A stretch of 64,000 nt of DNA from an uncultured delta proteobacterium (GCA_963787125.1 CAWBBV010000006.1:1-64000); one strand, 5' to 3'. Positions 16,788-27,145 are shown, counted from the first letter of the stretch. Numbers and translations are program-made. The notes: generated by a model not told the origin, from the letters alone.

Positions 16788-18134
16788 ATGAGTTCACTCG
16801 ATACTGATACCAGTCAAAAACAGGCAACAGTCCTGGTGGTGGATGACACCCCTGACAATCTTTCGCTGATGAGCGGCCTTTTGAAAGACCTGTACAAGGT
16901 CAAGGTCGCCAATAACGGTGAAAAAGCGCTGCAGATCGCCGCTTCCGACTCCCCGCCGGATTTGATCCTGCTCGACATCATGATGCCGGGAATGGACGGC
17001 TACGAGGTCTGTACCCGCTTGAAGGCTGATGAAAGTACGCGGGACATTCCGGTGATCTTTCTGACGGCCAAGGTCGAGGTGGAAGATGAAGCACGCGGAC
17101 TGGGCCTGGGTGCCGTGGATTACGTCACCAAACCGGTCAGCCCCCCCATCGTCCTGTCCCGGGTCAAAAATCACCTTGAACTGAAGACCGCCCGCGACCT
17201 GCTCCAGGCGCACAGCAAACAGCTGGAACTGAAGGTGCAGGAACGAACCGCGGAGTTGGCCTCACTTAATACCGTTTATGAGCGGTTTGTTCCCCAAGAG
17301 TTCATCACCCTGCTGCACAAGGAGAGCATTCTCGATATTCATCTCAATGACCAGGTGAGTCAGAAGATGACGGTCATGTTTGCCGATATCAGGAACTGGA
17401 CCAACACCCTGGAAAAGTTAACCCCGACAGAGGCGTTCAGTTTCATCAACGCCTATCTGCGCCGGGTTAACCCGGTGATCAAGAACAGCAACGGCTTTAT
17501 CGACCAGTTCTACGGCGACGGTGTCATGGCCCTTTTCCCGGGAACAGCTGATGATGCTGTGCAGGCCGCCGTCGGTATGCACAAGGCTGTTGCCGAGTAT
17601 AACCGGGAGCGGGCGCGGGACGGCTTTGCACCAATGAGTATCGGCATCGGCCTCCACCGTGCCGAACTTATGCTCGGCATCATCGGTAGTGAAGATCGCC
17701 TCCAGGGTGCCGTGGTTGGTGACGCAGTCAACCTTGCTGCGCGGATCGAGGGGTTGAACAAGATGTACGGCTCCTATATCAGCCTGAGCGATGAGACCCT
17801 TAAGGCGATGACAGCTGCCGGTCGTTATCGGCACCGTTTTATTGATAAAGTTCGCGTCAAGGGCAAAGAAGAGCCCGTCTCCATTTATGAAGTTTTCGAG
17901 GGAGATCCTGAAGAGATCGCCGGATTGAAGGAACAGACTAAAGCCGCATTCGAGAGCGGTATAGAGCTTTACCAGAGCAAGAAGTTTTCTGAAGCCAGTG
18001 TCCAGTTCAGTCAGGTGAAGGAGAAGAATCCGGCGGATCTGGCTGCCGGAATCTACCTGAAAAGGTCCGCCAACTACATGGTAAACGGCACACCCGCCGA
18101 TTGGACCGGTGTTGAAGCGCTGACTGAGAAATAA
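16788..18134 (+). CDS. Response regulator receiver fused to class III nucleotide cyclase
   Basis: REC (VVDD, LLDIMMP, LTA, KP); cyclase motifs FADIR, YGDGVMA, GDAVNLAARIE, VKGK. Confidence 0.92.
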   Translation: MSSLDTDTSQKQATVLVVDDTPDNLSLMSGLLKDLYKVKVANNGEKALQIAASDSPPDLILLDIMMPGMDGYEVCTRLKADESTRDIPVIFLTAKVEVEDEARGLGLGAVDYVTKPVSPPIVLSRVKNHLELKTARDLLQAHSKQLELKVQERTAELASLNTVYERFVPQEFITLLHKESILDIHLNDQVSQKMTVMFADIRNWTNTLEKLTPTEAFSFINAYLRRVNPVIKNSNGFIDQFYGDGVMALFPGTADDAVQAAVGMHKAVAEYNRERARDGFAPMSIGIGLHRAELMLGIIGSEDRLQGAVVGDAVNLAARIEGLNKMYGSYISLSDETLKAMTAAGRYRHRFIDKVRVKGKEEPVSIYEVFEGDPEEIAGLKEQTKAAFESGIELYQSKKFSEASVQFSQVKEKNPADLAAGIYLKRSANYMVNGTPADWTGVEALTEK

Positions 18135-18135
18135 A

Positions 18136-18302
18136 TCAAAAACCAGTTTCACGCGGATAACTTCGGATAGAATCTGATAAAAATCTGATTTTGAATCTAA
18201 CCTAATGATGATACTTGTAAAACCAAGAACCATACTTTAATCCCAAAAAGGGTTAATCCGCCTTTATCCGAAGTTATCAGATTTGATCCGCGTGCTGGTT
18301 TT
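18136..18302. repeat. ~165-bp palindromic repeat, copy 1 (intact)
   Basis: AAAACCAG-TTT-CACGCGGAT...ATCCGCGTG-CTGGTTTT; near-identical to the copies at 18680/20407 and 23541. Confidence 0.9.
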
Positions 18303-18313
18303 CGGAGGTTTTT

Positions 18314-23540: not shown

Positions 23541-23703
23541 GTCAAAACCGTTTCACGCGGATAACTTTGGATACAATCTGATAAAAATCTGATTAAGAAT
23601 CTAAACCAAAGATAGTACTGGAAAATCAAGAGCAAAAAGACATTAATCCGAAAATGATTTGATCCGCCTTTATCCGAAGTTATCAGATTTTATCCGCGTG
23701 AAA
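23541..23703. repeat. Palindromic repeat copy 3 (intact)
   Basis: TTTCACGCGGATAACTTTGGATACAATCTGAT...TTATCCGAAGTTATCAGATTTTATCCGCGTGAAA. Confidence 0.9.
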
Positions 23704-23753
23704 TAGCCTTTGATTTTTCTGTGATTCCGGCTCGTCGGATTAGGGGGTAGTAC

Positions 23754-26700
23754 ATGAAAAACATGGAGCCAGCCGCTCCTCTTCCCGGTGCTTTCACCCG
23801 CCTCAATCTTGCCCAGGCCTGCGGCGCACTGAACGACAACCTGGTGAAGCTGCTGCTGGTCTTCTACCTGGTGAGCCGCTCCAGCTCCGGCCAGGCCGGC
23901 ACCATTGCCGCCATAGGCAGCGGGCTGTTCATCCTTCCATTCCTCCTCTTTTCCGCCCTGGCCGGTTCCCTGGCGGACCGGTTCCCAAAGCAGCATATCG
24001 TTGTCGCGGTAAAAAGCCTTGAGATCGGCATTACCGTTCTTGCCGTTCTTGCCGTTGCATTCGACAGCCCGGTTAGCATCTATACCGTCATATTTCTGCT
24101 CGGCAGCCACAGCGCGCTGTTCGCCCCGGCTAAATACGGCGTGGTCCCGGAACTGGTGGCACGCGATCAGCTCTCCCGCGCCAACAGCCTCCTGGAGATG
24201 GCCTCCTATCTTGGCATCATCGGCGGCACAGCGCTGGCGCCGATAATGCTGTACTTATCCGGTGGTCACTACACTCTTACGCTGTCTGCAGGCATTGTCA
24301 TAGCACTGGCCGGCCTGGCTTTTGCCCGCGCCGTGCCGCTGACTCCAGTTGCCGATGCCGTCCGTCCGCTTGCCTGGCATCCCGGGGTTTACTGGCAAAC
24401 CCTCAGAGGGTTGCGCAGCGATGGCTACCTGCTCCTGGCCATCATCGGCGCCGCCTACTTCCTCTTCATCGCCGCCTTTTGCCAGCTGAACCTGTTACCC
24501 TATGGCATGCGCTATCTGGGACTGTCCGAAGTGGGAAGCGGCTATCTCTTCTTTGCCGCAGCTGTAGGCATCGGCGCCGGATCGCTCCTGGCCGGCCATC
24601 TCTCCGGCCGGGATGTGGAATTCGGCATAGTACCCGTCGGCGCCATCGGCCTGACAACGGCTGCCTTTCTTCTCAATGCAGCACCCGCCAGCCTGTACAT
24701 AATTCTCCCGCTGATCACCCTCTTCGGAGTCAGCGCCGGCCTGTTCATTGTACCGCTGCAGGCATTCATCCAGCTCCGGGCACCGGCCGGCCACCGAGGA
24801 GCGATCCTGGCGACTGCTTCGTTCCTCAGCTGGGTCGGGGTGCTGCTCGCCTCGGGCCTGCTCTGGCTGCTATCCGGACCGCTGGGAGTATCTCCCGGCA
24901 GTGCGTTCTCAATCCTGGGGATTATTACCCTCATTCTCTCCCTGATAACCCTTTGGATTCTCCCCGATTTCCTGCTCCGCTTCATTGCCCTGTTTACCAT
25001 GCGTTTCCTCTATCGCCTGGAGATAATCGGTGACCAGCGGGTTCCGCTCGAAGGAGGGGCACTACTTGTGGCCAATCACGTCTCCTGGATGGACGCGCTG
25101 CTGCTCCTTGCTACCCAGCAGAGGCGCATCCGCTTCGTCATGGAAAAAGAGATTTATGATACGCCGCTCCTCAAACAGCTCTGCAAACTTATGCAGGTGA
25201 TCCCGGTATCCGCCAAAGGGCGAAAGAAGGAGCTGCTGGAGTTTATCACCACTTCCCGCCGGGCACTTGAGGACGGCTACCTGGTCTGCATCTTCGCCGA
25301 AGGGGAGGTTACCCGTAACGGCATGCTCAACCGCTTCAAAGGGGGCTTCGAGCGGATTGTCAAGGGGACGGATATCCCGGTGATTCCGGTGTATATCGGC
25401 GGCGCCTGGGGGAGCATTTTTTCCTATTCCCATGGCAAGCTCCTCTCCCGTTTCCCCACCCTCCCCCCTATCGGGTAACGGTCCTCTTCGGCGACTCCCT
25501 GCCGGCAACATGCTCGGCCCACGATGCCCGCCGCGCGGTGATGGAGCTCTCCAGCAAATGGTTCGACGCCCGCAAACCACGGCGCCGCCCCCTGGGTGAG
25601 CTGTTCGCCAAAACGGCCCGGGAGAACTGGGGGCGTTTTGCCATGAGCGACACCACCGGCAAGGAATTAACCTATGGCAAGGCTCTGATTGGTGCCGTGG
25701 CCCTGGCGCGCAAGCTTAAATTGCTGACTGCTGGTGAGGAAATGGTCGGCGTCTGCCTGCCGACGACGGTCGGCGGCGCCCTGGTGAATATTGCCCTGAC
25801 CATGAACGGCACCGTACCGGTTAACCTGAACTACACCGCTTCGGCCGAGGGGATCCGCTCGGCTGTCGATCAGTGCGGCATCACCACGGTTATCACCTCC
25901 CGCGCCTTTCTGGAGAAGCTCGGCACTCTGCCCGAATTCCCCATCACCCTCTACGCGGAGGATCTGTTAGGGAACCTGACCGCCGCCGAAAAGCGCTGCG
26001 CTTTCCTTGTTGCCCGCTTCCTGCCACTCTCCCGGTTTGCCTGTCCGACCGGCTTTACTGCCGACCGCCTCGCCACGGTCATCTTCTCCTCCGGCAGCAC
26101 CGGAGAGCCCAAGGGGGTCATGCTCTCCCACCATAACATCACCTCCAATCTGGAGGCGCTGCGCATGGTCTTCCGCATAACCCGGCGGGATAATCTCTGC
26201 TCTGCCCTGCCGTTCTTCCATTCACTCGGCTTTACCGGCACGCTCTGGTTGCCACTGGTATCAGGCTTCTCCGCTTCCTATCATACCAACCCGCTGGATG
26301 GCGAGACGATTGCCACTGTGGTACGAGAGCGACAATCGACCCTGTTGTTCGCCACCCCCACCTTCCTGCTGGCCTATCTGCGTCGGGCAAAGGCCGAAGA
26401 TTTCCGGTCATTGAGGCTTGTAATGACCGGTGCCGAGAAGCTGAAAACCAAGTTGGCTGACACCTACCAAGAACGGTTCGGCATCCGCCCAATGGAAGGG
26501 TATGGTGCCACCGAACTGTCGCCGCTGATCTCCCTGTCGGTTCCTGATGTTGAGATCGACGGTGTACGCCAGACCGGATCCGTTGAGGGGAGCGTCGGGC
26601 TGCCGATACCCGGAGTGGTCGTGAAGGTTGTCGATCCCGAGAGCGGTGCAGCCCTGCCGGAGGGGCAGAGCGGCCTGATCATGGTGAAGGGGCCGAATCT

Positions 26701-27145
26701 CATGACCGGCTACCTCGGTAATCCGGAGAAGACCGCTGCAGTCATCAGAGCCGGCTGGTATGACACGGGCGACATCGGCCACCTCGATGAACTGGGGTTC
26801 CTGCACATTACCGACCGTCTTGCCCGCTTCAGCAAGATTGCCGGCGAGATGGTTCCTCACGGGGCGGTAGAGGATGCCCTCCACGCCGCGCTTGGCGCAA
26901 CCGGCCTGGTGGCGGTCACCGGTGTGCCTGACGAGAAGCGGGGGGAAAAGCTGGCGGTGGTTTTTGCCAGGGAAGCAGGTGACGCCGCTACGCTGCACAT
27001 GCTGATGGCCGCAGCCGACCTCCCCAACCTCTGGAAGCCGGGGCGTGACTGCTACGTGGCGGTTGACGCCCTGCCAATCCTCGGCACCGGCAAGCTGGAC
27101 TTGAAGGCGGTGAGAGAAACGGCGCTCAACGGGTTGCCGTCATGA
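23754..27145 (+). pseudogene. aas: LplT(MFS)-acyltransferase-acyl-ACP synthetase fusion, split into 23754..25478 and 25538..27145 by a 1-nt frameshift in a C6 run
   Basis: MFS LADRF/PAKYG; PlsC NHVSWMD and FAEG; AMP-binding FSSGSTGEPKG and EGYGATE. One extra C at 25463-25468 gives LPPYRVTVLFGD... and joins the two ORFs. Confidence 0.8.

Follow-up and report, generated by a model that had tools for sequence, protein, structure and literature searches.

A predicted cyclic nucleotide writer–reader–eraser module controlling an NTE-type patatin phospholipase in an uncultured delta proteobacterium

On one strand of the genome of an uncultured delta proteobacterium lie genes for a REC-class III nucleotidyl cyclase, a patatin with cyclic nucleoside monophosphate (cNMP)-binding domains, an Apyc1-like metallo-β-lactamase (MBL) fold phosphodiesterase and a protein of the LplT-acyltransferase-acyl-ACP synthetase (LplT-Aas) type. 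Do these genes form a single circuit, in which a second messenger is written, read and erased to control phospholipid hydrolysis, and does the lipid gene at the end belong to it? We addressed this question for positions 16788..27145 of a window of 64,000 nt (GCA_963787125.1 CAWBBV010000006.1:1-64000), the window being the whole stretch of DNA analysed. A preliminary description of this DNA had proposed a complete writer-reader-eraser circuit coupled to lysophospholipid repair. Our analysis supports, with moderate confidence, a two-component-driven three-gene writer-reader-eraser module that would govern a phospholipase; this part of the proposal is backed by co-inheritance, contiguity, recurring cyclase neighbours and a gene fusion, whereas the repair arm was not supported.

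The putative writer (16788..18134, 448 aa) consists of a REC domain and a class III cyclase domain. The putative reader and effector (20516..22744, 742 aa) carries two cNMP_binding domains, an NTE_Ploop domain and a Patatin domain, and the putative eraser (22749..23522, 257 aa) is an Apyc1-like class II (MBL-fold) cNMP phosphodiesterase assigned by PF23023. All three genes are on the plus strand. As had been described, the MBL gene starts (ATG 22749) 4 nt after the patatin stop codon (TAG 22742-22744), a distance that fits co-translation. The open reading frames (ORFs) and domains of the four genes originally described were all present, but the start of the patatin gene and the reading of LplT-Aas as a single gene required correction (see below).

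We examined the conservation of these genes in a panel of 41 genomes, consisting of this genome and 40 relatives from genus to order. A full-length counterpart of the patatin was found in 1 of the 40 relatives, a genome of the same genus (G004). At E ≤ 1e-10, the MBL protein had a counterpart in that same genome (80% identity), besides a partial 32% match in one other relative; for the REC-cyclase, at E ≤ 1e-90, the same-genus genome was the only relative with a match. Close counterparts of each gene are thus confined to the same 2 of 41 genomes, a rare distribution that is identical for the three genes. Of 400 other genomes sampled from the class, 1 matched the patatin at E ≤ 1e-100, and of 400 from the phylum, 7 did so at E ≤ 1e-80, all with no more than 46% identity; the MBL protein was matched at E ≤ 1e-40 in 1 of 400 genomes of the phylum. 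The gene order in the same-genus genome was as follows: kinase, CheB-CheR, several unrelated genes, REC-HD, REC-cyclase, an interval of 62 bp, patatin, MBL, orf163, orf432 and MlaA; the GxxExxY cassette and LplT-Aas were both absent from this locus. Synteny elsewhere, which had been named beforehand as a test that could refute the circuit, was therefore found within the clade for the three-gene core but not for the four-gene set. In metagenomes, close homologues of the patatin and of the MBL protein had longest contigs of the same size in four cases (5892, 7058, 8314 and 166267 bp), and the 166267-bp size was also common to an 83%-identical cyclase (the P0009, P0125, P0261 set).

The cyclase scored 94.7 bits for REC and 53.9 bits for Guanylate_cyc (PF00211, cut-off 21.9), the latter being 56.2 bits in the genome scan. 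Its REC residues D19, D20, D63, T93 and K115 are present, and in an alignment of 121 REC-cyclases (the query and 120 listed homologues, 66-93% identical) D19, D20, D63 and K115 occurred in 121/121 sequences, position 93 being T in 8 and S in 113. In an alignment with Cya2 and OaPAC, D200, D244, N315 and R319 occupy matching positions, and they were likewise invariant (121/121); from the class III literature, we take D200 and D244 to be the metal-binding aspartates, and N315 and R319 to be the transition-state asparagine and arginine. The base-specifying positions are occupied by Gln240 (Q in 121/121) and Ala308 (A in 120 of the 121). Canonical adenylyl cyclases combine Lys with Asp or Thr, the photoactivated adenylyl cyclase having Lys/Thr, and canonical guanylyl cyclases Glu with Cys, Gly or Ser; Rv0386 has a Gln/Asn pair. 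The best solved relative of the window cyclase, the guanylyl cyclase Cya2 (2W01, 95 bits), resembles it in the aligned metal Asp, Asn and Arg residues but has Glu/Gly in place of the Gln/Ala of the window cyclase family. The window cyclase has neither the adenylyl nor the guanylyl pair, and cyclic AMP (cAMP) is therefore not to be assumed as its product. Among 8000 candidates scored, the family included 7405 proteins at E ≤ 1e-30, those listed being mostly 66-70% identical.

The patatin ORF shows the domain order of NTE, with 151 bits for cNMP_binding (PF00027), 114 for NTE_Ploop (PF24179) and 113.5 for Patatin (PF01734), all above the respective cut-offs (27.5, 27 and 27.7 bits). Consistent with the earlier reading that the catalytic Ser and Asp and the Arg of both cassettes are intact, we located the oxyanion motif GGGGARG at residues 472-478, Ser502 in GTSMG, Asp615 in DGG, and the two phosphate-binding cassettes, G90-E91...R100-S-A and G223-E224...R233-T-A. 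G90, G223, E224, S502 and D615 were invariant in a 32-sequence alignment of the family, and E91, R233 and A235 were kept in at least 90% of the sequences. The longest ORF extends from a GTG at 20354, but over the first 54 codons it coincides with a copy of the DNA repeat described below. Because AAAGGAG precedes the ATG at 20516 and the upstream part of the ORF is repeat DNA, the gene start was placed at this ATG, and the alignments of homologues begin near residue 8 of the protein so started; the gene is thus most likely 20516-22744, encoding 742 aa. A match of 18228-18311 to patatin residues 20-47 was considered as a split 5' end of the gene and rejected, this segment being another copy of the repeat. 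With 2243 proteins at E ≤ 1e-20, the family is large and keeps to a single architecture. One member, P0068, has a PilZ domain (PF07238) in addition to the cNMP-binding, NTE P-loop and patatin domains, which hints at a cyclic di-GMP input in some members. No functional study of a bacterial NTE-type member was found in our literature searches.

The MBL protein scored 109.9 bits for PF23023 (Anti-Pycsar_Apyc1; cut-off 50) over residues 2-257, and its best solved relatives were the Apyc1 structures 7U2S/7U2R and 7T28 (E about 4e-31, almost full length). An HxHxDH motif is present as HLHADH at 61-66. On this basis the protein is predicted to hydrolyse 3',5'-cNMP. In Hobbs et al. (2022), closely related bacterial Apyc1-like proteins are described as cleaving cyclic mononucleotides broadly, and the cellular context of host-encoded Apyc1-like enzymes is raised and left open. 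Among 1.84 billion representatives searched, 2723 were related at E ≤ 0.001. A metagenome protein of 1011 aa (P0361), which ranks with one other as the best of these, is a GAF-PAS-class III cyclase-Apyc1-like MBL fusion, that is, a writer and an eraser in one chain; its MBL part is 56% identical to that of the window, and its cyclase has Glu/Ala at the specificity positions. In addition, a 49%-identical MBL protein closes a cluster of CheA-REC, MCP and CheB genes in another genome of the phylum (L142, G422:C49, ~7936-16981), in which the call of a 712-aa ORF may overextend the N-terminus. Both cases link this clade of MBL proteins with cNMP made by cyclases and with chemosensory or two-component pathways.

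It could be argued that the three genes are adjacent without forming a private circuit; the patatin would then read a general pool of cAMP or cGMP, or its cNMP domains would be regulatory modules that bind no ligand, and the MBL protein would act generally, as a phosphodiesterase for cNMP or RNA. We regard this explanation as unlikely. In its favour, MBL homologues are labelled 'ribonuclease BN' in one source and RNase Z models match the MBL protein at about 60 bits; however, this match covers only residues 1-95, the N-terminal third, and is far below the models' own cut-offs, whereas the Apyc1 family is matched at full length above its cut-off. The cyclase-MBL fusion, the identical rare phyletic pattern and the 4-nt gap between the patatin and MBL genes also argue against it. 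The same explanation gains from the number of other potential partners in the genome, which encodes four class III cyclases (three besides the window cyclase) and eight cNMP-binding domains in seven proteins (six besides the patatin), and from the neighbourhoods of distant patatins, most of which lack a cyclase or MBL neighbour.

These neighbourhoods were surveyed at 83 distant loci, 3 from Nitrospirota (59-60% identity) and 80 from metagenomes (28-43%), by a Pfam scan of 233 ORFs, with up to two simple longest-ORF calls per side, which may err in high-GC contigs. Contigs often ended near the gene, so that an upstream ORF was available in 57/83 loci, a downstream ORF in 70/83 and both in 44/83. 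As tblastn alone missed two of the five cyclase neighbours seen by Pfam (L037 and L088), the neighbour counts rest on the Pfam scans; a single-protein search of genome contigs gave only 5 loci. A class III cyclase was located within two genes of the patatin in 6 of the 83 loci (5 by Pfam and 1 by tblastn only). The five seen by Pfam were a MASE2-cyclase, a cyclase-FHA protein, a REC-cyclase and two CHASE2-cyclases, with four different sensor domains; cyclases with different sensor domains have been recruited repeatedly beside this patatin family. One of six in-phylum loci had an AMP-binding gene and a cyclase downstream. Otherwise, the neighbours of distant patatins were mostly genes of lipid metabolism or transport (SDR, thiolase, MaoC, desaturase, acyl-CoA reductase and ABC transporters). 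A few neighbours had cNMP-binding or Crp-type domains: a SulP-STAS-cNMP protein (L085, 3193-5466), a pyridine nucleotide-disulphide oxidoreductase-cNMP protein (L048, 4597-6327) and a protein with a Crp-like helix-turn-helix domain (L104, 1857-2681). It follows from these counts that the patatin family overall is not bound to a cyclase or a phosphodiesterase.

Several observations weigh against the three-gene module. No cyclase lies within two genes in 77 of the 83 family loci, an MBL gene was found downstream of the patatin in none of the 70 loci with a downstream ORF, and the three Nitrospirota patatins (59-60% identity) are flanked by genes on the opposite strand. The same-genus genome, the sole second genome with the trio, is rich in frameshifts (in the kinase, orf432, MlaA and, several times, the patatin, which is in at least three frames) and thus informs on gene order and not on gene integrity, and the argument from shared contig sizes is indirect. 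In the present genome, the cyclase and patatin genes no longer adjoin, 2.4 kb of foreign DNA having come between them. Given the additional cyclases and cNMP-binding proteins, the signalling need not be private, and cross-talk is possible. Arg100 of the first cassette is replaced in a few members of the 32-sequence alignment, and eukaryotic NTE is not known to bind cAMP through its cNMP domains. Finally, the phosphodonor, the nucleotide, the lipid substrate and every biochemical step are inferred from sequence. With these points weighed, a dedicated three-gene module remains the reading that we favour.

The fourth gene, LplT-Aas (23754..27145, plus strand), would re-import and re-acylate the lysophospholipid released by the patatin if it were a dedicated repair arm, as the preliminary description had it. 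It is adjacent and co-directional in this genome, and LplT/Aas chemistry, as established for E. coli, would suit the patatin product. Some distant patatins also have related functions nearby, with a PlsC-type acyltransferase in 2/83 loci (directly downstream in L090, and in L105) and AMP-binding enzymes in about 4/83 loci, one of which is a non-ribosomal peptide synthetase and one weak; the distant family loci with an AMP-binding enzyme nearby included L100, L103 and, weakly, L070, as well as L098 and L138 by tblastn. However, an MFS-LplT neighbour occurred in 0/83 loci, and with this query LplT-Aas was not found in the same-genus genome, which is 90% complete and is the only other genome with the trio. 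LplT-Aas was present in 19 of the 41 genomes including this one; none of the 18 relatives concerned has the patatin, and five of their LplT-Aas loci that were fetched contained no other window gene nearby and had unrelated neighbourhoods. We therefore place the gene outside the conserved module, and a four-part circuit seems to us highly improbable.

The structure of the gene itself also speaks against a repair arm. It is split into two ORFs in different frames, encoding the MFS and acyltransferase domains (23754-25478) and the AMP-binding domain (25538-27145). Both halves match the 1147-aa model of fused LplT/Aas, NF006386 (positions 9-573 and 600-1143, 627 and 757 bits, respectively, against a cut-off of 1221), and together cover nearly the whole model; unlike the fused proteins, however, the window copy is not one continuous protein of about 1150 aa and is unlinked to the module in the other genomes examined. 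In relatives, 17 matches were in single open frames of 1123-1283 aa. Compared with four relatives, the window has one base fewer in a C-run near 25465-25470, and the frame stops inside the end of the acyltransferase domain. This frameshift is probably real because the other long genes scanned in the window, including that of the 1741-aa kinase, read through. One DNA sequencing run with 0.06 of the sampled words was found, and no RNA run was listed.

The gene is also preceded by a repeat that flanks a second insertion. This repeat, an imperfect palindrome of about 160-180 nt, occurs at four places in the window: a full copy at 18124..18302, after the cyclase, a second full copy (84%) in the MBL-LplT interval at 23544..23700, and a copy split into halves (18668-18776 and 20418-20485) that enclose orf154 and the DUF6884-like gene of the insert. 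Elsewhere in the genome it was found at two sites only (G000:C7:238196-238310 and C6:280689-280741), and no copy was found at the same-genus locus. The repeat is possibly a mobile or recombinogenic element of small size. The insert between the cyclase and the patatin (18314..20345, plus strand) has a GC content of 0.39-0.42, compared with about 0.55, and contains three ORFs: a GxxExxY/PD-(D/E)XK protein (18314-18721), orf154, which matches no family (18793-19257), and a DUF6884-like protein of 357 aa (19272-20345; 28 bits, below the cut-off of 30) that weakly matches the PADLOC candidate PDC-M57A. That the GxxExxY cargo is an insert, as first suggested, is borne out by its low GC content, the flanking repeats and its absence from the same-genus locus, in which cyclase and patatin are 62 bp apart. 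Both segments absent from the same-genus locus adjoin copies of the repeat, and this arrangement fits a recent rearrangement, not a designed coupling. LplT-Aas thus appears to be an accidental neighbour that arrived recently, and not a designed repair arm. Just downstream of the locus, a DDE transposase gene (31249-32634, minus strand) accompanies a low-GC (0.36) stretch (30000-32634), a further sign of mobile DNA nearby.

We next consider what may drive the three-gene module. On the plus strand from 6.5 to 30 kb, the order is kinase, DUF2092 protein, small ORF, CheB-CheR, 4HB_MCP-HAMP-GAF-PAS protein, REC-cyclase, the low-GC ORFs, patatin, MBL, the MFS-acyltransferase ORF, the AMP-binding ORF, orf163, orf432 and MlaA. 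An Hpt-bearing hybrid sensor kinase upstream had been proposed as the phosphodonor, and Pfam indeed places such a kinase at 6586..11811 (plus strand, 1741 aa) with the order 4HB_MCP-HAMP-GAF-PAS (several copies)-HisKA-HATPase-REC-REC-Hpt. The same-genus genome also has a counterpart, 85-94% identical, upstream of its cyclase, and a counterpart of the CheB methylesterase-CheR methyltransferase fusion (13238..14713, plus strand; 81% identity) lies there between kinase and cyclase. Phosphotransfer from the Hpt kinase to the REC domain is plausible, and we treat the kinase as the candidate phosphodonor. Its sensor region is of the chemoreceptor type (4HB_MCP), and a CheB-CheR fusion gene adjoins. 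This combination suggests that the sensor kinase may undergo methylation-based adaptation. A further protein (14798..16519, plus strand) shares the domain order of the kinase N-terminus, 4HB_MCP-HAMP-GAF-PAS, with no output domain detected by Pfam, and no match above 60 bits to it was present among the matches listed for the same-genus locus. That locus has in addition a response regulator of the REC-HD (HD_5) type (L021, G004:C7, 8547-9797), which immediately precedes the REC-cyclase and is absent from the window.

Downstream of the module, three genes (27289..29911, plus strand) encode orf163, orf432 and an MlaA lipoprotein, and these are the direct neighbours of the MBL gene in the same-genus genome. 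The MlaA start overlaps the orf432 stop by 1 nt (27834-29911 in the window). The orf432 product looks like a divergent alpha/beta hydrolase, with an atlas score of 0.99 to alpha/beta hydrolase clusters and Pfam matches only at E 0.002-0.15. Elsewhere in the window, a cNMP-binding domain is encoded at 61339-61596 on the minus strand, in an open frame of 625 aa. An Rfam scan of 16000-28000 at E ≤ 0.1 gave no match, and searches with promoter and terminator consensus sequences over 16400-27400 gave 7 and 7 sites, compared with 8.2 and 11.5 in shuffled sequences, and were uninformative on operon structure.

Taken as a working model, a phosphorelay, most plausibly from the upstream hybrid kinase through its Hpt domain, would phosphorylate Asp63 of the REC domain and activate the class III cyclase. 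The cyclase, with its Gln/Ala pair, would then make some 3',5'-cNMP, and binding of this nucleotide to both cNMP domains of the patatin would switch on a (lyso)phospholipase with the Ser502/Asp615 dyad. The translationally adjacent Apyc1-like phosphodiesterase would hydrolyse the cNMP and reset the switch. The output would likely be a regulated deacylation of membrane phospholipids, that is, remodelling and not suicide, and the earlier suggestion that the deacylation cycle is reversible rather than suicidal seems reasonable. As for its history, the module was probably acquired as a unit by one lineage of the genus; the palindromic repeat would then have invaded intergenic regions in this genome, with the GxxExxY cassette now interposed and LplT-Aas appended.

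A rather different possibility is that the locus mediates anti-phage abortive infection, with the logic of Pycsar or of the cyclic oligonucleotide-based anti-phage signalling system (CBASS); the cyclase would sense infection, the phospholipase would destroy the membrane and the MBL protein would damp background signal. PADLOC models of PycC, which lack a curated cut-off, match the cyclase (best 76 bits), PycTIR and phospholipase-effector models match the patatin, and the low-GC cassette inside the locus holds a weak match to a defence candidate. However, the cyclase is far nearer to canonical class III enzymes (95 bits with Cya2) than to the solved PycC proteins (7R65, 21.6 bits; 8JSF, E 0.062), and a REC domain, placed behind a sensor kinase, supplies its input. 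The NCBIfam models of the CBASS lipase and the anti-phage phospholipase match the patatin only weakly, at 29.7 and 28.8 bits, far under their cut-offs of 200 and 400 bits. The large size, fixed architecture and mostly lipid-metabolic or transport neighbours of the patatin family also differ from this expectation. In the portions available of two papers on Pycsar (PMC11224242 and PMC13069673), transmembrane (TM) and TIR effectors are the only ones named and a patatin effector is not mentioned. Nor was a patatin effector of Pycsar found in our literature search, from whose coverage subscription journals were mostly absent. A defence function is accordingly improbable in our view, and regulated membrane remodelling by the three-gene module is the preferred interpretation.

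The locus resembles Pycsar and Apyc1 in combining a mononucleotide cyclase with a cNMP-binding effector, and its eraser is in the Pfam family of Apyc1. It differs from Pycsar in several respects: its cyclase scores as a canonical class III enzyme, closer to Cya2 than to the solved PycC proteins, and has a REC input; its effector is an NTE-type patatin and not a TIR or TM protein; and its phosphodiesterase is host-encoded within the module, with no defence-island context outside the inserted cassette. As in type I CBASS (CD-NTase with the CapV patatin), a nucleotide messenger is predicted to activate a patatin phospholipase, but no CD-NTase was found among the ORFs scanned from 6586 to 29911, the window sensor consists of two cNMP-binding domains, and the lipase model stays below its cut-off as noted. 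Eukaryotic NTE enzymes have an N-terminal transmembrane segment and a third cNMP domain. The window protein shares with NTE/PNPLA6, PNPLA7 and yeast Nte1 the order of cNMP-binding, NTE P-loop-like and patatin domains and the Ser-Asp dyad, but it has 742 aa and two cNMP domains, and its gene is linked with those of a cyclase and a phosphodiesterase. The eukaryotic enzymes are (lyso)phospholipases that deacylate phosphatidylcholine (PMC6995513, PMC5704489, PMC6852622). Neither a bacterial cNMP-gated NTE-type patatin nor the three-gene set was found in the literature search, with the same limit on coverage. The novelty would therefore reside in the combination: both the reader and the eraser of this cNMP circuit are unusual, and the specificity of its writer is unassigned.

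A bolder form of the model can be considered, in which the product of the Gln/Ala cyclases is a 3',5'-cNMP of a non-canonical or mixed kind, such as cGMP or conceivably a pyrimidine nucleotide. This signal would specifically gate a bacterial NTE-type lysophospholipase, and a host Apyc1-type phosphodiesterase of broad specificity would clear it. We hold this extension to be speculative and unlikely. If true, the module would be a housekeeping two-component counterpart of Pycsar, it would reveal what bacterial NTE cNMP domains sense, and cellular modules of this type would be a possible source of phage Apyc1.

The three-gene module has further implications. It brings to notice a large and tightly conserved family of REC-cyclases with an invariant Gln/Ala pair, and it offers a concrete cellular context for host-encoded Apyc1-like enzymes. 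In particular, the ligand and role of the cNMP domains are unsettled for NTE/PNPLA6-type phospholipases, and a member tied to its own cyclase and phosphodiesterase provides a direct system for testing these domains as genuine cNMP switches and for identifying the nucleotide that they recognise.

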